Below, one piece after another: positions 2,013 to 28,349 of a stretch of 32,837 nucleotides of DNA (positions are counted from its first letter, which is position 1; each line of letters starts with the position of its first letter). The position numbers and the translations under genes were made by a program. Below the pieces are notes generated by a model. It was not told the DNA's origin and made no database searches. It saw only the letters and a list, made by a program, of their open reading frames with translations. This stretch comes from Gaiellaceae bacterium. Lineage in GTDB: Bacteria > Actinomycetota > Thermoleophilia > Gaiellales > Gaiellaceae. The stretch spans positions 1 to 32,837 of the forward strand of contig DAINSN010000001.1 of NCBI GenBank assembly GCA_036741295.1, given 5' to 3'.

Positions 2013-2687
2013 TCAGCGCTCTGCGTCGAGCTCCAGGCCGACCGCCGCGAAGTTGTAGAGCAGGAAGTACGCGAAGCTCAGCGCCAGGGTGAACACCAGT
2101 GTCACCGTGATCGCCTCCTGGTAGGCGAAGGGGTCGCGCGCCACGGTGTGAAGGATCCGCGGCAGGACGCTTGGATGCTCGACCGCGTCCCAGCTATTGA
2201 GGCGCAAGAAACGGCCGAGATAGATCCCGAGCGAGCCCAAGCCGATTGCGAAGAACGCAAAGACCCAGCCCGCGACCGCGCCCCGCCACTGACGGACGAC
2301 GGTCTGCATCAAGTACAGGGAAGCAAAGCCCAGGATCACACCCATCCAGGCGAACGCGGCGATCGTGACCGCGTCGTACCAGTACGGAGCCAGCGGGTCG
2401 TGCTGCAGGTGGACGAAGTCGGTCGCGATGTACGGCGCGTTCGGGAAGAAGAGCAGCCAGAACCCGCCCAGCACCAGGAGCAGCATGCCGCCGCGACGGC
2501 GCCGCCAACGGTCGTAGACGAAGACCGCAAGCGCAAACGGAATCCACGCGAGGAAGAGATTCCAGATCAGGTAGCGGAAGTCGACGTTCCCTGTGTGCGC
2601 GTCGCGCACGAGGACGAGTGCGACGCAGAAGAGCGACGCGAGGAAGAGGCCCAGGAAAGTCGCGAGTCGACGGCGACTGAAACGCAT
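2013..2687 (-). CDS. DUF1361-family integral membrane protein
   Basis: 224-aa ORF with multiple hydrophobic spans and the FFPNAPYIATDFVHL motif typical of DUF1361. Its ATG lies 2 nt after the stop of the upstream VOC gene. Confidence 0.75.
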   Translation of the reverse strand: MRFSRRRLATFLGLFLASLFCVALVLVRDAHTGNVDFRYLIWNLFLAWIPFALAVFVYDRWRRRRGGMLLLVLGGFWLLFFPNAPYIATDFVHLQHDPLAPYWYDAVTIAAFAWMGVILGFASLYLMQTVVRQWRGAVAGWVFAFFAIGLGSLGIYLGRFLRLNSWDAVEHPSVLPRILHTVARDPFAYQEAITVTLVFTLALSFAYFLLYNFAAVGLELDAER

Positions 2688-2689
2688 CG

Positions 2690-3169
2690 TCAGTCCGCTT
2701 CGGCCAGCAGCGTCTGGAGGTCGAGCGGCTCCGAGACCATCGACATGCTGCCGTCACCCGCGCGCGGCCACTCCTCCTTCGGACGGTCGCGGTAGAGCTC
2801 GATGCCGTTGTCGTCGGGATCCCGGAGATAGATCGCCTCGCTCACGCCGTGGTCGGTCGCGCCGCTCAGCGGGATCCCGGCCTCGACGAGCTGCTTCAAC
2901 GCCTGCGCGAGCGCCTTGCGGTCCGGATAGCGGATCGCTACGTGGTAGAGGCCGGTCGTGCCGGGCGGTGGCGGCGAACCGCCTTTCGACTCCCACGTGT
3001 TGAGACCGATGTGGTGGTGGTATCCACCGGCGGAGATGAACGCAGCTTGGTCGCCGTAGCGCTGCATCTCTTCGAAGCCGAGGACGTCACGGTAGAACGC
3101 CAGCGCGCGGTCGATGTCGCTCACCTTCAGGTGGACGTGGCCGATGTCCACGCGCGGATCGATCGCCAT
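2690..3169 (-). CDS. VOC-superfamily protein (glyoxalase/bleomycin-resistance/extradiol dioxygenase-like)
   Basis: 159-aa ORF with IGHVHLKVSDIDRALAFYRDVLGFEE...GGYHHHIGLNTW...GLYHVAIRYPDR...SEAIYLRDPDDNGIELYRD, the classic paired beta-alpha-beta-beta-beta VOC signature. Confidence 0.85.
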   Translation of the reverse strand: MAIDPRVDIGHVHLKVSDIDRALAFYRDVLGFEEMQRYGDQAAFISAGGYHHHIGLNTWESKGGSPPPPGTTGLYHVAIRYPDRKALAQALKQLVEAGIPLSGATDHGVSEAIYLRDPDDNGIELYRDRPKEEWPRAGDGSMSMVSEPLDLQTLLAEAD

Positions 3170-4625
3170 CAGCCGGCAACGCTACCGGTGCAAGTGCGAT
3201 CCCGGCCAGGGCCCAGAGGCAATACGCAATCCATGGGTCGCCGATGACATCCGTCTGGACAGCGAGCACGAGGGACGCTCCGAATGCTGCCGCGATGCCG
3301 CCGGCCGCCCACCAGCGCGTGCGGCGCGCAGTCGTGACGAGGCCGGCGAAGATCGCGAGCCCCCACCCGATCCAAAGCAGCGCCCCGAACAACCCAGTCT
3401 CGGCGCCGATCTCCGTGTAGTTCGACTCCCCGGCCTTGATCGCCGTCCCGGTGCGCGAGGCCGTCTGGCCCGCGTTGCCGAGCCCGAAGCCCTGCGGATG
3501 GTGGACGACGGTGCGCACACCTTCGCGAAGGCTGACCCAATGGCTATGAATCGAAGGCTCGTCGATGCTGCCGGCACTGCCGCTCGCACCCGGTTGTTGC
3601 TTCGCGTTGTTGCGTTGCTGCACCAGGTCCTGCTGCGTCCATTTCCCTTGCGGCGCGACGTGCGGGAAGACGTGCACCCAGGCAACGCTGACGGCCAGCG
3701 TCGCGATCACGGCAGCAATAGGCCACCAGCGCCGTGTGACGAAGGCAAGCACGACGAAACCGGCGGCGAGCGCAAGCAGTGACGAACGCGAGAAGGTAAA
3801 GAGCAGTCCCGCAAAGATCACCGCACTCAACGGGATCAGGATGCGGGGCCGGCGCAGGAACGCGGCGCCGAGCAATAGCGCCACAACGAACGCGTACGCG
3901 CTCGCGAGCGGCCCGAGGAAGGTCGACACCAGCCGGCGGTAGAACCCCGCCGCATCGCCGCCGTTGTTGAACACGAAGTTCTCCGGCAGGCGGCCGGTGC
4001 CGTGGTAGTCGTAGCCGAGGTGCTTGTGGAAGTAGTCGACGACCGCGGAGTCGCGCCACCACGAGATCGGAACCAAGAAGTCGTCGAGGAGCCCGAGCAC
4101 GGCGACGGCAGCTGCCGTACCGACGACGGTCCAGACGAGCCGGACGAGCTCCTCGCCGCGGAGGATCACGGAGCGGCCGAGGAAGTAGGCGCCGACCGGA
4201 ACGAGATCGTGCTTGAGCGCGAGGCCGACCGCCGACCGGTCGGCCGTTCCGCCGAGCCAGTCTTGCGGCAGGACCGCGTACACGCAGACGAGTGCCGCGA
4301 ACGCGAGGGCGAGAACGTCGGCGGGGTGAATCCGAAAGGCAAGCCGGCTGGTGCGGAGGACCTCGAGGGCGACCCGCGCGAGCGCGACGCCGAGCAGGAT
4401 CTCCTTCCACGCCTGAACGGCGGTCAGAGTCGCGCCGCGAACGCCCGCGCCGTAGAGCGTTGCCATGACGGCGTTGTGGGCGGCCAGGCCGACGATCCAC
4501 GCGTAGAGCGCGAAGACAGGCCGCCGCCAGACCAGGACCGCGCCGGGCACGAGCAGGAGCCCGTAGAACGCGACCGCGAGCCCTGAAGCCATCAGGCGGG
4601 TAGTAAACCGGGCGGGGAACGCCAC
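3087..4625 (-). CDS. O-antigen ligase/polymerase-like (Wzy_C) polytopic membrane protein
   Basis: 512-aa ORF with about 10-12 hydrophobic spans, an FSRSSLLALAAGFVVLA segment and a large periplasmic loop typical of the O-antigen ligase family. The start could be GTG 4625 or ATG 4592. The low-complexity C-terminal tail overlaps the VOC gene by 83 nt in another frame. Confidence 0.7.
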   Translation of the reverse strand: MAFPARFTTRLMASGLAVAFYGLLLVPGAVLVWRRPVFALYAWIVGLAAHNAVMATLYGAGVRGATLTAVQAWKEILLGVALARVALEVLRTSRLAFRIHPADVLALAFAALVCVYAVLPQDWLGGTADRSAVGLALKHDLVPVGAYFLGRSVILRGEELVRLVWTVVGTAAAVAVLGLLDDFLVPISWWRDSAVVDYFHKHLGYDYHGTGRLPENFVFNNGGDAAGFYRRLVSTFLGPLASAYAFVVALLLGAAFLRRPRILIPLSAVIFAGLLFTFSRSSLLALAAGFVVLAFVTRRWWPIAAVIATLAVSVAWVHVFPHVAPQGKWTQQDLVQQRNNAKQQPGASGSAGSIDEPSIHSHWVSLREGVRTVVHHPQGFGLGNAGQTASRTGTAIKAGESNYTEIGAETGLFGALLWIGWGLAIFAGLVTTARRTRWWAAGGIAAAFGASLVLAVQTDVIGDPWIAYCLWALAGIALAPVALPADGDRSARGHRPRPPEGERHRPRAGVLP

Positions 4626-24006: not shown

Positions 24007-24699
24007 GTGGACAAGGCGGCGCTCGTGACAGGTGGCTCTTCTGGTATCGGCTTCGCCATCGCGAGCATGCTCCGCGAAAACGGCTTCGCCCTGACACTCG
24101 CCGCCAGGACGCGCGAGAAGGTCGAGCTCGCGGCGGAAACGCTCGGTGCCCATGCCGTCGCCGCCGACGTTGCGAAGGAGGAGGACTGCCGCCGCCTCGT
24201 CGACGAGCATCGCGAACGGCACGGACGGCTCGACGTACTCGTGAACTCCGCCGGAGTCGGGATCGCCGGCCCCGTCGACGAGCTCGAGACGAAGCACATC
24301 GACCTGCAGTTGAACGTCAACCTGCGCGGCACGATCCTGGTGACGGCGGCCGCACTTCCGCTCTTGCGTGAAGCGCGCGGCCTGATCGTGAACATCGCGT
24401 CGATTGCCGGAACAGGCCCGGCCGGACCGCTGTCGGTCTACGGCGCGACCAAGGCGGGCGTGATCAACTTCACGGGCTCACTCGGCCGCAACGAGGAGAA
24501 GCATGGCGTCCGCGCGACCGCGCTCAGCCCTGGCTTCGTGGACACGCCGATGACCTCGTGGGCCCCGGTCCCGCCCGAGCGCATGATCCGTCCGGAGGAC
24601 TGCGCCGAAGTCGTACGTGCATTGCTACGCCTCAGTCCGTACGCTCGGCTCCCTCACATCGTGATCGAGCGCGTGGACTCGGCCGATCTCGGCGCCTAG
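24007..24699 (+). CDS. Short-chain dehydrogenase/reductase (SDR) family oxidoreductase
   Basis: 230-aa ORF with a GTG start. It has the cofactor motif VTGGSSGIGFAIA, then NSAG, and the catalytic YGATK (YxxxK). Confidence 0.85.
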   Translation: MDKAALVTGGSSGIGFAIASMLRENGFALTLAARTREKVELAAETLGAHAVAADVAKEEDCRRLVDEHRERHGRLDVLVNSAGVGIAGPVDELETKHIDLQLNVNLRGTILVTAAALPLLREARGLIVNIASIAGTGPAGPLSVYGATKAGVINFTGSLGRNEEKHGVRATALSPGFVDTPMTSWAPVPPERMIRPEDCAEVVRALLRLSPYARLPHIVIERVDSADLGA

Positions 24700-24724
24700 A
24701 GCTCGCCGCGATATCTCCCGCCGT

Positions 24725-25066
24725 CTAGGCTTGGAAACGCGTCGGCTTGACGCGCTGCCGCGCAAGAAAGCGGTCGACCGCGTCACGATGAACGCGGAGG
24801 ACACGGCCGACGCGTACCGCATCGAGCCTGCCGTCGTGGATCAGCCGCCTGACGGTCTCGGGGTGCACACCCAGCTGATCCGCCACCTCGCGAACGCTGA
24901 CGAGCCCGGGCTCTCCGCCTGCAGAAGACACGATCACTGCGAAGCCTTGCAGGTCCTCCGGCCACGCGCATGGGCCGGCGCGCCTCGCTCCGAACGGCTC
25001 GTCGAAGAGCCACAGCCTGCCGCCAACGCAGTCAGCGCAAGGGCGGCGAGCAAAGCGCGCACGCAT
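24725..25066 (-). CDS. Excisionase-family (MerR-superfamily Xis-type) HTH DNA-binding protein
   Basis: The C-terminal 60 aa read LVSVREVADQLGVHPETVRRLIHDGRLDAVRVGRVLRVHRDAVDRFLA, a typical 'DNA binding domain, excisionase family' sequence. ATG 25066 lies 4 nt after the stop of the 37-codon ORF. A shorter version starting at GTG 24937 (70 aa) is possible. Confidence 0.7.
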   Translation of the reverse strand: MRARFARRPCADCVGGRLWLFDEPFGARRAGPCAWPEDLQGFAVIVSSAGGEPGLVSVREVADQLGVHPETVRRLIHDGRLDAVRVGRVLRVHRDAVDRFLARQRVKPTRFQA

Positions 25067-25070
25067 TCAT

Positions 25071-25184
25071 CTAGATCTCTCCGCCGTCGTGGTTTCCGTC
25101 AGGCAAGAAACTCAGTGCCGGCAGCAGAGCGGTAAAGATGAGGACTGCGAAGACCGCGAAATAGATCAGTCGAGCCTTGGACAT
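25071..25184 (-). CDS. Unlisted 37-aa ORF: signal-peptide-like small protein, candidate secreted propeptide
   Basis: My own translation gives ATG 25184 ... TAG 25073..25071 = MSKARLIYFAVFAVLIFTALLPALSFLPDGNHDGGEI. It is preceded by AAAGGAGGTG (GGAGG at 25197..25193, 8-nt spacer). GC3 is about 69%. It lies 27 nt downstream of the XRE/TPR gene stop and is below the length cut-off of the ORF track. Confidence 0.55.
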   Translation of the reverse strand: MSKARLIYFAVFAVLIFTALLPALSFLPDGNHDGGEI

Positions 25185-25211
25185 GTGGTTCACCTCCTTT
25201 CGAAAGATGGT

Positions 25212-26585
25212 TTAGAAGCGGACGTCTTGCAGGGCGTCGGCGGCCTGGCGGTAGAGCCGGGCGGCATTCCGATCGTCACCACGCCTCGCAGCGAGATCGC
25301 CCTGGGCGACCCACGCCGACGCACGGTGGCTCCCGGACGAGAGTTGGTCGTACGCGCGCTCGCCGGCCTGGAAGGCAACGTCGGCCTCGTCGAGCCGATC
25401 CTGCTCGAGCAACGACCGGCCCAGCACGAGCTGGGCGTTGCCGATTTCACTCATCTCGTCGACACGGTCGCCGAGCAGCTCGAGCGCATACCGCGCCTGC
25501 TCCTCGGCCCGCTTGATCTCGCCGGTGCGCAGGTGAACCTGGGCGATGCCGTTGACCGCGTGTGCGGCCTCCGCGTCGTTTCCGACTTCTAGGGCGATGC
25601 GAACTGCGTCTTTGAGGAAATCCACGGCCTCCTCGGGATGGCCGAGCAGGAAGTTGATCCCGCCCAGGTTGTTCAGCAGCCGGCCGAGGTTGCCGCGGTC
25701 CGAAAGCTCCTCGTATGCCGCCTTGGCGCGCTCTGCGTAGGAGCGCGCGAGTACCCAGTGGCCCTCGCGGTCGGCGATGATCGACGCCTGGAAGTAGACG
25801 TCGGCGGCCGTGCGCTTGTCGTTCAGGCCCTCGGCCAGCTCGAGTGCGCGTTCGACGTCCTCGCGAGCAGCCTCGAGATCGCGGCGCCGGCGATAGCACC
25901 GCGAGCGCCACGCAAGGATGTTCGAGCGGAGCTGATCTGACGGAATCTCCGAGCGCTCGGCCAGCTTGAGCGCCTCGTCGAACAGGCCGATCGCCGTCTG
26001 GATGCTGTTGAGCTTGTAGCGGGCGACGCCGAGCCGGAAGAGCACGTCGGCGCGCTCGACGTCCGAGAAAGACGTGCCCTCGCAGAGCGCGCGCGCCCGT
26101 TCGAGCAGAGCGATCGCCTCGCGGACCTCGCCGCGACGCATGCGTACGGTTGCCTCGCCGGAGAGCGCACGCGACTCGAGCTCCTGCATGCCGGTGGCCA
26201 GCACCGCAGAGCGGATGCCCTCGAACTCCTCGAGCGCCTCATCGTTCCGGCGCGCCTCGAGCAGCGCCTCCGCGCGCGCAAGCGCCGCATCGACGCGTCC
26301 GCGCTCGTCGGCAGAAACGCCGTTGGCCAGAAAACTTGCGTCTACGCCCAGCCGCTGTGCGAGCCAGTCGATCGTCTCGCGCGTGGGACGGGTCTTGCCG
26401 CGTTCGATCTGGCTCACGTACTCCTTCGAGAACCGATCGCCCGCCAGGTCCGTCTGGGTCATCGAGGCGGCGACGCGAAGCTGGCGCAGGCGTTCGCCGA
26501 GTCTCAGCCCGGCCTGAGCGGCAGAGGCCCGCTGTTGCTGACGGATGGCGGTCGAGTCAGACACGTGCGGCTTAGTAGACGACAT
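25212..26585 (-). CDS. XRE-family HTH transcriptional regulator with a long TPR domain (paralogue 2)
   Basis: 457-aa ORF. The HTH reads LGERLRQLRVAASMTQTDLAGDRFSKEYVSQIERGKTRPTRETIDWLAQRLGV. Repeated TPR-like helix pairs follow (e.g. ADVLFRLGVARYKLNSIQTAIGLFDEALKLAE, AADVYFQASIIADREGHWVLARSYAERA, LLNNLGGINFLLGHPEEAVDFLKDAVRIA). Confidence 0.85.
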   Translation of the reverse strand: MSSTKPHVSDSTAIRQQQRASAAQAGLRLGERLRQLRVAASMTQTDLAGDRFSKEYVSQIERGKTRPTRETIDWLAQRLGVDASFLANGVSADERGRVDAALARAEALLEARRNDEALEEFEGIRSAVLATGMQELESRALSGEATVRMRRGEVREAIALLERARALCEGTSFSDVERADVLFRLGVARYKLNSIQTAIGLFDEALKLAERSEIPSDQLRSNILAWRSRCYRRRRDLEAAREDVERALELAEGLNDKRTAADVYFQASIIADREGHWVLARSYAERAKAAYEELSDRGNLGRLLNNLGGINFLLGHPEEAVDFLKDAVRIALEVGNDAEAAHAVNGIAQVHLRTGEIKRAEEQARYALELLGDRVDEMSEIGNAQLVLGRSLLEQDRLDEADVAFQAGERAYDQLSSGSHRASAWVAQGDLAARRGDDRNAARLYRQAADALQDVRF

Positions 26586-26651
26586 ACTTCACAAAACTTC
26601 AACCTGTCCTTTCGGGCATCCCCCAAAAAGGTCATGTTCGGGCCGGAAACC

Positions 26652-26696
26652 TGTCAAGTAAGCCTAACTCAAATCACTTGACCTAGCTACTTGACA
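26652..26696. promoter_or_regulatory. Three ACTTGAC motifs, including a 9-bp inverted pair (candidate operator and/or divergent -35 elements)
   Basis: TGTCAAGTA at 26652..26660 is the exact reverse complement of TACTTGACA at 26688..26696. A third copy, CACTTGACC, sits at 26675..26683. All three lie in the intergenic region upstream of regulator paralogue 2. Confidence 0.45.
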
Positions 26697-26719
26697 TGCC
26701 CCGAGAAGCCTCCTAGAGT
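26691..26719 (+). promoter_or_regulatory. Near-consensus housekeeping-sigma promoter on the + strand
   Basis: The -35 is TTGACA (26691..26696), the spacer is exactly 17 nt, and the -10 is TAGAGT (26714..26719, TANNNT). The predicted TSS is near A26726. Confidence 0.6.
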
Positions 26720-26725
26720 GAGGCC

Positions 26726-26898
26726 AGCTTGCAACCGAGCCAGACGCCAGGGTCGGCTGCAGGAGGCACTTCACCAGGTGGGATCCGCAAGGGGCGTGGC
26801 TGGGCCGCAGAGCCAAGTCCCAGGGAGACCGCCACACAGGGCGGAGTCGCCTAAAAGGAATCGACCCCCGGAGCCGCAGCCGGGGGTCTTCCTCTTTT
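26726..26898 (+). ncRNA. Candidate ~170-nt small RNA of unknown family (promoter-to-terminator unit with no credible ORF)
   Basis: It is bounded by the promoter above and the intrinsic terminator at 26863..26898. Internal hairpins lie at 26731..26760, 26797..26815 and 26829..26844. The only in-frame start candidates lead into a read-through ORF antisense to the MFS gene, beyond the terminator. Confidence 0.45.
26863..26898. terminator. Bidirectional intrinsic terminator
   Basis: GACCCCCGG-AGCCGCAG-CCGGGGGTC is a 9-bp GC stem (26863..26888), followed by TTCCTCTTTT on the + strand. On the - strand the same hairpin is followed by GATTCCTTTTAG, immediately after the MFS stop codon (26898..26900). 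Confidence 0.7.
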
Positions 26899-28349
26899 CA
26901 GGGCCGGTTCACCTCGATGCCGAGGGCCGGTTCCGCGGCGCCTTCGTGGCGGGGCAGCCGGCGGACCGTTGTGACCGAGATGATCGCGCCCACGAGAACG
27001 AGTGCGGCGCCGAGGTGGACTGCTCGGTGATAGCCGCCGACGAACTCGCCTCGCCACAGGGGATCCGTCGGCGGGACGCTGACGCGCGTGGCCACGAGGG
27101 CGCCCATGATCGCGATCCCGAGCGAGCCGCCGACCTGGCGCATGCTGTTGATCACCGCAGAGCCCACACCCGCCTTCGTCACAGGAACGGAGCCCATCGC
27201 CGCGGCGGTCGTCGGCGCCATCGTGACGGCCATCCCGACGCCGCCCACGAGCAGGCCCGGGAGGATGTTCCAGAAAGACGAGCTCGCGTCCAGCGTCCCG
27301 AAGAGAACCAGCGACAGCGCGAGCAGGGACATCCCCGCCCCCATCAACCAGCGCGCGCCGATCCGGTCGGAGAACCTGCCTGCGGCCGGAGCGACGAGGA
27401 TGATCAGGACGGTCATCGGGAGGAACGTCGCGCCGGTCTCGATCGCGCTGTAGCCGAGGACGCGCTGCAGCAAGAGCGAGTTGTAGAAGAAGATCCCGAA
27501 CATCGCGAGCCCGACGAGCAGCATCGCGGCGTTGGCGCCGACGAACGTCGAATTCCGGAACAACGAGAGGTCGAGCATGGGCAGACGCTGGCGCAGCTCG
27601 AGCAACACGAAGGCGATCAGGGCCACCAGTGCGATGGCGAACAGCATCAGGACACGCGTCGACGTCCACGCGTGATCGTTCGTCTCGATCAATCCGTACG
27701 TGAGGGCGAAGAGGCCGGCCCCCGAGGTGATCAGGCCTGGTAAGTCGAGCCTCTGCTCCAGCGACGTGTCCTTCGTTTCGTCGATGAAGACTCGCGCCGC
27801 AACCACGCCGAGCACGCCGACGGGAATGTTGATGAAAAAGATCCAGCTCCAGCTGACCTTCTCCGTCAGCAGGCCGCCCACGATCGGGCCGATCGCGAGC
27901 GCAAGCGCAGAGACGCCGGCCCAGATGCCGATCGCTGTCCCTCGCTGTCGCGGCGGGAAGGTCGCGGTGATGATCGACAGCGTCGCGGGGTTCATCAACG
28001 CAGCGCCTACACCCTGCACAGTGCGTGCAGCGATGAGCGACCCCGCACCGCCCGCGAGGCCGCACCACAGCGACGCGCCGGTGAAGATCACAAGGCCCGC
28101 GATGAAGATCGCCCGGCGGCCGAGCAGGTCGGCGAGCTTCCCGCCGGTGAGAAGCAGCACCCCGAACGTGAGGGCGTAGGCGTTCACGACCCATTCGAGC
28201 TCCGAGATGCCGATGCCGAGGTCCTTCTGGATCGACGGCAGCGCCACGTTCACGACCGTGTTGTCGAGCATGATCATGAACAGCCCGACCGAGACCGCAA
28301 CGAGCGTCCACCACTTTCGGTTCTCAGGCGTGAAGAGCCGAGCACGCAT
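26898..28349 (-). CDS. MFS transporter, DHA2 (EmrB/QacA, 14-TMS) drug:H+ antiporter family
   Basis: 483-aa ORF. LDNTVVNVALPSIQKDLG, GKLADLLGRRAIF and WSWIFFINIPVG are typical DHA2 signatures, with about 14 hydrophobic spans. Confidence 0.9.
   Translation of the reverse strand: MRARLFTPENRKWWTLVAVSVGLFMIMLDNTVVNVALPSIQKDLGIGISELEWVVNAYALTFGVLLLTGGKLADLLGRRAIFIAGLVIFTGASLWCGLAGGAGSLIAARTVQGVGAALMNPATLSIITATFPPRQRGTAIGIWAGVSALALAIGPIVGGLLTEKVSWSWIFFINIPVGVLGVVAARVFIDETKDTSLEQRLDLPGLITSGAGLFALTYGLIETNDHAWTSTRVLMLFAIALVALIAFVLLELRQRLPMLDLSLFRNSTFVGANAAMLLVGLAMFGIFFYNSLLLQRVLGYSAIETGATFLPMTVLIILVAPAAGRFSDRIGARWLMGAGMSLLALSLVLFGTLDASSSFWNILPGLLVGGVGMAVTMAPTTAAAMGSVPVTKAGVGSAVINSMRQVGGSLGIAIMGALVATRVSVPPTDPLWRGEFVGGYHRAVHLGAALVLVGAIISVTTVRRLPRHEGAAEPALGIEVNRP

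Follow-up and report, generated by a model that had tools for sequence, protein, structure and literature searches.

The closest described relatives in design of the locus considered here, a gene for an XRE-type regulator followed by a 37-codon peptide gene in a Gaiellaceae contig, are the RRNPP receptor-propeptide pairs. The published RRNPP signature has five criteria: a propeptide of 10-100 aa, its secretion (a SEC tag by SignalP, or the SHP/PptAB type), a receptor of 250-500 aa, tetratricopeptide repeats (TPRs) in the receptor, and receptor and propeptide genes that are direct neighbours (PMC10075063). The RRNPP_detector survey took in only Firmicutes and viruses, and Actinomycetota typically use small-molecule signals (PMC10075063). 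RRNPP(A) is treated as a Bacillota trait in that paper and in a 2025 structural phylogeny, which assigns receptors with nine non-degenerate TPRs and a helix-turn-helix (HTH) domain (NprR-type) to clan B, describes a DPG motif in AimR and subfamily 08 peptides, and points to the need for an outgroup by which RRNPPA could be rooted (PMC10075063, PMC12700828). Our literature search found no link between RRNPP and Actinomycetota beyond the statements in these two papers, in agreement with the original prediction for this DNA, which held such systems to be known from Firmicutes and phages; they have been reported or surveyed only in Bacillota and viruses. The DNA is the 32,837-nt stretch of contig DAINSN010000001.1 (assembly GCA_036741295.1), called the window below; its GC content is 68%, and its nearest database relatives are metagenome-assembled genomes (MAGs) labelled Gaiellaceae, Thermoleophilia or Actinomycetota.

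The first, third, fourth and fifth of the five RRNPP features (4/5) are found at this locus: a peptide of 37 aa, a receptor of 450 or 457 aa, TPRs, and adjacency of the two genes (PMC10075063). The likeness is greatest to NprR-NprX, QssR (clan B) and PlcR-PapR. The regulator is cytoplasmic in type, with an N-terminal XRE-type HTH, about nine non-degenerate TPRs and a size within 250-500 aa; a small open reading frame (ORF) preceded by a Shine-Dalgarno (SD) sequence lies directly downstream on the same strand; the peptide combines a basic N-terminus with a hydrophobic core and a C-terminal part that is conserved; and repeat-type, operator-like sites stand upstream of the receptor gene. Unlike NprR and PlcR, the Gaiellaceae module belongs to Actinomycetota and not to Bacillota, its similarity to them is limited to generic TPR and HTH domains, its locus is single-copy, syntenic and core-genomic with a small RNA (sRNA) as putative target, and one family-wide motif, G-Φ-x-D-G, is common to all clades. 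The Rgg-SHP and ComR-XIP systems share the XRE-HTH receptor and a short hydrophobic peptide active at its C-terminus (predicted here), and ComR matches the HTH; those systems differ in having five-TPR folds, an shp gene that is usually divergent and export by PptAB/Eep, whereas the Gaiellaceae receptor is built on nine canonical TPRs, and its gene runs in the same direction as the closely following peptide gene.

We tentatively favour, with somewhat less than even confidence, the reading that the locus is a vertically inherited Gaiellaceae module working as an RRNPP-type (NprR/PlcR-like) peptide switch, one that is not demonstrably homologous to the described systems. The comparison rests on 80 orthologous loci from a genome scan, one per species-level genome, with a regulator identity of 64-96%; all of them come from Gaiellaceae or Thermoleophilia MAGs. 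Selection statistics are Nei-Gojobori ratios of nonsynonymous to synonymous differences (pN/pS) on 20 close, gap-free orthologues, and peptide family counts rest on 79 extracted peptide genes (78 for the count of cleavage sites).

The regulator gene, the candidate peptide receptor, occupies 25212..26564 on the minus strand. The longer ORF, 25212..26585 (minus strand), encodes 457 aa and ends in a TAA at 25212-25214. Pfam detected HTH_31 at residues 28-83 of the 457-aa product (E 5.7e-12) and the TPR families TPR_12 (E 6e-25), TPR_2 and TPR_MalT. In the AlphaFold2 model (pLDDT 87.2, pTM 0.71), an HTH at residues 29-88 is followed by 18 helices that make nine TPRs, so that Pfam and the model agree with the XRE-HTH and TPR architecture first proposed for the 457-aa product. 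The conserved start is the GTG at 26564, giving 450 aa, and not the ATG at 26585; it is probably the true one, because the seven codons following that ATG hold in-frame stops in four orthologues (L001, L002, L007, L013). The GTG lacks a preceding SD, and therefore the regulator mRNA may be leaderless. The HTH segment (residues 29-97) is near-invariant among orthologues. Full-length homologues reach down to about 32% identity; searched exhaustively, 1.84 billion representative proteins yielded 277 of them at E <= 1e-30.

The peptide gene lies at 25071..25184 on the minus strand. From the regulator TAA, a 27-nt gap holding AAAGGAGGTG leads to its ATG at 25184, and translation gives MSKARLIYFAVFAVLIFTALLPALSFLPDGNHDGGEI, with an MSKAR basic N-terminus, a hydrophobic core and the tail FLPDGNHDGGEI, and its stop is a TAG at 25071-25073. 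Coordinates, SD and product are thus as originally described. The SD AAAGGAGGTG (25191-25200, minus strand) has conserved variants in relatives: GGAGGTG, GGGGGTG or a near variant stands upstream of the start in 79/79 extracted peptide genes, mostly 5-11 nt off. The sequence AGGAGGTG is present three times in the window, and the single copy ahead of an ORF start is that of the peptide gene.

A recognisable peptide coding sequence is present at all 80 orthologous loci and is intact, with its motif, in 75 of them. At 78 of the 80, an ORF with an SD ahead of it begins 15-43 nt past the regulator stop and runs for 31-44 codons, or for 53 in the frameshifted L046. Among the damaged copies, L067 is cut short by an early stop codon; in L046, counted in the 78, the frameshift places the canonical tail in another frame; and in L024 the same peptide is fused to the regulator by a frameshift. 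Over the peptide ORF, pN/pS was 0.37 for the coding frame, as opposed to 1.24 and 1.72 for the two others, and the third-position GC (GC3) was 0.82. Because the ORF is conserved at 80 loci, shows purifying selection in frame and has this GC3, these patterns indicate that it is a real gene, translated and constrained, and a chance ORF is ruled out on the same three grounds. The original prediction had staked the small ORF on conservation and purifying selection beside orthologous regulators, and both are seen, at 80/80 loci and with the in-frame ratio just given. The exact window peptide is present in public gene calls on 36 contigs, with no meaningful name. No Pfam or NCBIfam family matches it, and a profile search with the peptide family, by a word-index method that limits sensitivity, returned 159 clusters in which the only names given were Gaiellaceae hypothetical proteins.

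The L024 locus is of separate interest. At L024:4001-5509 the frameshift near the 3' end of the regulator gene joins regulator and peptide in frame, giving a 503-aa product ending in VSKARLIYVAVLAMLIAMALLPALQFFPLGPHDGGRF, which could reflect faulty assembly or a genuine fusion.

A joint function of regulator and peptide is argued most strongly by a pairing that does not depend on synteny. Eight distant homologues with DNA (identity 32-46%) were compared, and six of them, at 37-46% identity, keep a peptide of the same design, with differing neighbours, spacing (15-170 nt) and orientation. P0334 (43% identity, L081/L082), in the context of GT4 and Rv1322-like genes, adjoins the small ORF MINKGTLARLFVSVAAFASLASLAGGFFDGH; P0333 (46%, L088), in the context of FTCD and an HD-domain gene, adjoins MNKGNLLLVLIVLTSFLAMLGGGFVDGH; P0439 (37%, L084), among DUF2207 genes, has a convergent small ORF ending in LLRPLGGGWFDGS; P0326 (46%, L086/L087), with sRNA and heptamers upstream, has one ending in ILGGHGHGGGFVGH; P0335 (44%, L085), with hrcA and dnaJ on either side, has one ending in QVHHHRGGRGFHEW; and P0405 (40%, L090), an HTH-less form, has one ending in ISPLGFSRGA. 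The remaining two are P0425 (41%, L089), an HTH-less form with no adjoining small ORF, and P0409 (32%, L083), with a SHOCT protein in place of the peptide. The distant tails read GGFFDGH, GGGFVDGH, GGGWFDGS (in convergent orientation), GGGFVGH, RGFHEW and LGFSRGA. Because the pairing persists despite changed neighbours, spacing and orientation, the two products probably work together, and the proposal of a conserved pair of a receptor and an export-type small ORF in an Actinomycetota lineage is borne out by its recurrence at 37-46% identity.

Three of these distant loci have features of their own. At L085:2501-4003 the regulator (2501-3853) and, at +39 nt, the gene for a peptide with the tail RGFHEW form an insertion that separates hrcA from dnaJ. 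The spacer upstream, 490 nt long, contains two AGTCAAGTAC sites and a number of strong hairpins, and nothing in it matches the sRNA model described below. At L090:1189-2490 the HTH-less TPR homologue is followed at +15 nt by MHRYALPALALALMVAHWKLGISPLGFSRGA, and its tail GFSRGA is similar to the arbitrium xxxRGA codes, possibly by coincidence. At L083:889-2486 an HTH-TPR homologue has two GTCAAGTTA sites upstream and, downstream, the gene for a 95-aa SHOCT-domain protein. Since L083 keeps the GTCAAGTTA sites and has the SHOCT protein and no peptide, the operator motif seems to predate the partnership with the peptide.

The peptides share one anatomy. Intact family copies are 28-44 aa long (37 aa in the window), within the length range of Phr and AimP propeptides. 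All of them have an N-terminus with a net charge of +1 to +3, typically starting M-x-K-A-R-L-I, and continue into a hydrophobic run; most end in a tail that is uncharged overall or negative. In 76/79 peptides we found the motif P/G-x-G-[F/M/W/P]-x-[D/E]-G, with 1-6 residues remaining after it, and the tail of the window peptide includes it as G-x-H-D-G. Within the close clade, pN/pS was 0.22 in the N-region, 0.25 in the core and 0.56 in the tail, against 0.16 in the receptor C-terminus; the tail pN of 0.30 compares with 0.085 in the receptor C-terminus, a rate about 3.5 times faster. Ordering the peptides by the receptor tree gave about a dozen tail classes, strictly clade-specific, for example GSWFDGH, VGFFDGH, GGGFFDGHxxxW, GGMNDGG[YS]W, LGFSDGAW, GFSDGPL, GFADGPR and PxGxH[DE]Gxx[IF]. 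Such clade-specific tails would fit a receptor-ligand pair.

The region upstream of the regulator carries candidate operators and a candidate output. A heptamer array at 26653..26695, recognised by clustering and conservation, holds GTCAAGT at 26653-59 (plus strand) and ACTTGAC at 26676-82 and 26689-95 (plus-strand reading), in the arrangement GTCAAGT-N16-ACTTGAC-N6-ACTTGAC, and the final copy overlaps the -35 element of the sRNA described below. A further heptamer, GTGAAGT at 26586..26592 (minus strand), adjoins the regulator start and corresponds to GTGAA-N8-TTCAC in distant loci. The window holds nine GTSAAGT sites against 3.8 expected, five of the nine inside 26586..26774. Two direct copies are at least 80% conserved over 68 loci, and (A)GTCAAGT(A/T) is also found twice upstream of the 44% and the 32% identity homologues. 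The heptamers are probably operators of the regulator, which has both XRE-family features, the HTH_31 domain and repeated operator-like half-sites upstream of its own gene. Their clustering upstream of the regulator, in keeping with the near-invariant HTH, suggests autoregulation.

The 310 nt upstream of the regulator are conserved far beyond expectation for this divergence. We detected in this block a predicted sRNA of about 172 nt, divergent from the regulator (26726..26897, plus strand), on the evidence of promoter, terminator and covariation. Its promoter, TTGACA, 17 nt, TAGAGT (26691..26719, plus strand), matches at 10/12 positions and is the sole promoter-like site in 24600..27000, where shuffles average 0.1; ACTTGAC-N17/18-TAnAGT is kept across loci, with TATAGT in distant loci. 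A bidirectional intrinsic terminator (26863..26888, both strands) ends the sRNA on the plus strand and a major facilitator superfamily (MFS) gene on the minus strand. The RNA is laid out as a 5' hairpin, a central hairpin with the loop GGGCCGCAG and a terminator hairpin, whose loop AGCCGCAG is invariant and whose stem covaries; GCCGCAG is displayed in both the central and the terminator loop.

The fold z-score was -3.3 on the plus strand and -2.3 on the minus strand. RNAalifold on 43 sequences gave 21 pairs, 14 with compensatory changes; 95.2% of cells were paired versus 82.9% in shuffles, and the covariation of 0.415 compares with 0.184 in shuffles (0/500 as high) and at most 0.147 in slid controls. 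The plus-strand sRNA is favoured because G-U pairs outnumber A-C pairs; on these grounds, with promoter and terminator both on the plus strand, a long minus-strand 5' leader is disfavoured. The central-hairpin motif was found once per locus, on the opposite strand and 164-540 nt upstream of the regulator start, in 79/80 loci (226-330 nt in most), and the sRNA of L069 was confirmed by eye and by covariance model. Motif and covariance model together thus place a single divergent sRNA copy upstream of the regulator in each of the 80 Gaiellaceae loci, and also in L086. Rfam gave no match at gathering score and chance-level matches only (E >= 5), which rules out a known RNA family for the conserved block; the comparative evidence points to an undescribed structured sRNA with its own promoter and no Rfam family. 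The loop complement CTGCGGCC has three matches in the window against 4.2 expected, which is uninformative on targets.

Taken together, the favoured peptide-switch reading would run as follows. The XRE-HTH/nine-TPR factor would bind the GTSAAGT heptamers in its own upstream region and autoregulate its gene. The cognate 28-44-residue peptide would be encoded on the regulator transcript, 8-30 nt beyond the regulator gene, and translated from a near-perfect SD. The divergent sRNA would be the most likely direct target of the regulator, because one heptamer overlaps its -35 element. The basic N-terminus and hydrophobic core would drive insertion or export of the peptide, and the C-terminal part with G-Φ-x-D-G would be released and re-imported, to dock in the concave groove of the TPR superhelix. 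Its docking there would alter the HTH occupancy of the heptamers and so change how strongly the sRNA and the regulator-peptide operon are expressed.

Among the best matches of the regulator are LGN/Pins and kinesin light chain (KLC), with a template-modelling (TM) score of 0.8 for LGN and E 1e-6 for KLC. These proteins bind extended peptides in a concave groove, and KLC recognises W/Y-acidic (aromatic-acidic) motifs, which resemble peptide tails such as SWFDGH and GMNDGGYW. By analogy, the groove of the regulator could plausibly bind a tail such as SWFDGH. LGN and KLC have an unrelated function and no DNA-binding domain, and the similarity is that of the consensus TPR fold.

Several observations weigh against the peptide-switch reading. 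The TPR domain is similar to other TPRs only generically and resembles the canonical ones of LGN and KLC. Among the best 50 of 516 Foldseek matches in the PDB (E <= 0.001) we found consensus TPR proteins, LGN/Pins (target-normalised TM up to 0.80 versus the regulator model), OGT and other canonical or eukaryotic TPR proteins, and no RRNPP receptor; the best 50 matches of a structure search of BFVD were generic viral TPR proteins, with neither AimR nor an RRNPP receptor among them. A profile of the regulator family compared with PDB sequences gave Pins at 2.4e-10 and KLC at about 1e-6, PlcR and ComR aligned over the HTH only (ComR E 1.3e-4), and the RapJ TPRs at E 6.5e-4 were weaker than LGN or KLC. 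The similarity to TPR domains of RRNPP receptors expected by the original prediction found no support in these searches, and RRNPPA membership by homology is not supported, there being no specific sequence or fold relation of the TPR core among the matches listed.

Other points on the same side concern the peptide, the locus and the sRNA. The clade-specific tails are equally expected from vertical descent and are no independent proof; tail-receptor co-variation, which had been put forward as a check, gave a Spearman coefficient of 0.31 on crude distances, with perfect clade specificity of the tail classes. Simple -3/-1 cleavage-site candidates occur in 70/78 peptides at positions that are not conserved. 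The regulator-peptide locus is single-copy, syntenic and core-genomic, and many characterised RRNPP systems are accessory or on mobile elements; no oligopeptide permease gene is present within the 32.8-kb window. The covariance model found no sRNA beside the 37-44% identity homologues, and the sRNA may be a lineage-specific neighbour. Finally, the hydrophobic run is 19-22 residues long in the clade of the window, enough for a stable membrane anchor.

This last point bears on the best-surviving alternative, in which the peptide is an uncleaved single-pass membrane micropeptide (N-in, C-out) that either tethers or sequesters the regulator via its cytoplasmic MxKARL or acts outside together with a lipoprotein, with no diffusible signal. 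We consider it unlikely, while giving it real weight. The length of the run in the clade of the window speaks for it, as do the strong conservation of the N-terminal M-x-K-A-R-L-I (pN/pS 0.22), the extracytoplasmic thioredoxin-like lipoprotein encoded after the peptide gene in at least 33 of the 80 loci, and the core-genomic, single-copy state of the locus. However, in many clades the run is just 12-16 residues, the length of a signal peptide, and the cytoplasmic end is merely 4-7 residues long. The most conserved element over 37-100% identity is the extreme C-terminal motif, which an anchor would place outside the cell, far from the cytoplasmic TPR domain. The lipoprotein is also dispensable: its gene is deleted in the window, L002, L003, L004 and L014 and absent at many loci, and the peptide persists.

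That the peptide is an unrelated small membrane protein, merely co-transcribed, with a TPR domain that senses another ligand or protein, seems to us decidedly unlikely. TPR domains accept many kinds of partner, the 32% identity homologue pairs with a SHOCT protein, and one HTH-less homologue has no adjacent peptide, but the adjacency holds over 37-100% receptor identity despite changed context, a spacing that varies from 8 to 170 nt, and changed orientation, and the receptor clades are congruent with the tail classes. More improbable is an export monitor, that is, a peptide normally cleared by the signal recognition particle, Sec or YidC that accumulates on failed insertion, binds the TPR regulator and reports envelope or proteostasis stress; the 44% identity homologue and its peptide between hrcA and dnaJ, and the Gaiellaceae locus amid redox and envelope genes, would suit this purely inferential proposal, but a generic hydrophobic monitor leaves the conserved C-terminal motif and its clade-specific flanks unexplained. 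A precursor of a ribosomally synthesised and post-translationally modified peptide or bacteriocin, or a type-I-toxin-like peptide whose expression the regulator merely controls, is very improbable: the ORF is small and hydrophobic with a conserved C-terminal motif, but no conserved modifying enzyme, transporter or immunity gene is nearby, neither Pfam nor NCBIfam has a match for the peptide, and its gene comes after that of the regulator within one operon, with one copy per genome.

Two further systems were compared. With arbitrium the module has in common a TPR receptor that also carries a DNA-binding domain, a propeptide gene that comes after it, a non-coding RNA output (a candidate here) and a mature code at the C-terminus (predicted here) with a conserved core. 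Arbitrium differs in that the Gaiellaceae module is not on a phage, its RNA is upstream and divergent and not downstream, and its TPRs are canonical whereas those of AimR are degenerate, with no AimR-like match among those listed from BFVD. We found no viral relative of the locus among 2.9 million viral contigs, and the context is single-copy, syntenic and housekeeping; the arbitrium affinity originally suggested, and with it a phage origin, is not supported, and arbitrium membership fails on these grounds and on the lack of conservation of the Xis-like gene described below. In Actinomycetota, WhiJ-like XRE regulators pair with DUF397/BldB-like partners, and there too a small gene adjoins that of an XRE-HTH protein; those partners are soluble and of about 70 aa, the regulators have no TPRs, and an export-type peptide is lacking.

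Downstream of the peptide gene, a lipoprotein gene of about 300 aa follows directly in the 33 or more loci mentioned (intact, for example, at L007:5521-6432 and L044:5634-6521). Its product has a lipobox and a C-terminal FATPxFCxSRTCGPVVD...FLVGxDGRIKxKFEG, thioredoxin/TlpA-like by eye, with no Pfam match and weak lipoprotein matches only in NCBIfam. In the window there is a 42-codon stump (24934..25062, minus strand) with signal peptide and lipobox LAAGC, beginning MRALLAALALTALAAGCGSS. About 820 nt of the gene are missing in the window, L002, L003, L004 and L014 compared with L007, L011 and L020, and this comparison with relatives indicates that the stump was left by a deletion of about 820 nt.

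A small Xis/BldC-type HTH_17 protein of about 71 aa (24725..24940, minus strand) comes next, as a neighbour and not a conserved member of the module. An excisionase-family gene with its ATG 4 nt past the peptide TAG had been read here: the 113-codon ORF 24725..25066 does exist, but only its residues 56-105 match HTH_17/excisionase (HTH_17 E 1e-14, TIGR01764 E 2.7e-16), and its first 42 or so codons overlie the lipoprotein stump in a different frame. The gene most likely starts at the GTG at 24940, with no translational coupling to the peptide. It is present in 34/80 loci, starting +222 to +1165 nt from the regulator stop, mainly where the regulator is more than 75% identical to that of the window, and absent from most loci below 72%; it abuts the peptide gene in the window because of the lipoprotein deletion. 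An Xis-type HTH as the coupled output gene, as first supposed, is ruled out by this lack of conservation, the variable distance and a juxtaposition that arose from deletion. The protein has a weak BldC-family match (NF033787, E 1e-3), and since no integrase is nearby, a BldC-like regulator is more likely than a prophage excisionase.

The surroundings are syntenic and housekeeping, with an acetyl-CoA synthetase-like gene (acs), MFS, a short-chain dehydrogenase/reductase (SDR) gene and selD; thiolase, FadB, DsbD-like, CtaA and NAD synthase genes lie farther out in the window. In L030, L031, L069, L074, L079, L065 and L078, which have no lipoprotein gene, rhodanese-like sulfurtransferases or 1-Cys peroxiredoxin come after the peptide gene; further on, selD and SDR are conserved, which gives the neighbourhood a redox, sulfur and selenium flavour.

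Judged from genome comparison, what is new here is an RRNPP-like receptor-peptide pair in another phylum that is core-genomic, has a family-wide peptide motif and is associated with a new sRNA. The fuller claim, that this is the first RRNPP-type system outside Bacillota, ancient and vertical in Gaiellales (Thermoleophilia), with a secreted, re-imported C-terminal code and the new sRNA as direct output, is possible and in our view leans toward doubtful. If it is true, genetically encoded peptide quorum sensing exists in Actinomycetota, and the nine-TPR, HTH-bearing receptor is a candidate for the outgroup wanted to root the RRNPPA family (PMC12700828). Should the peptide turn out to be a micropeptide partner in the membrane, regulator, micropeptide and sRNA would still make up an undescribed, family-wide unit. 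The module yields roughly twelve putative peptide codes, together with an operator motif and an sRNA as candidate output, and a conserved receptor-peptide pair in the abundant, mostly uncultured soil Gaiellaceae would carry RRNPP signalling logic, described from Bacillota and the mobile elements they host, into another phylum.

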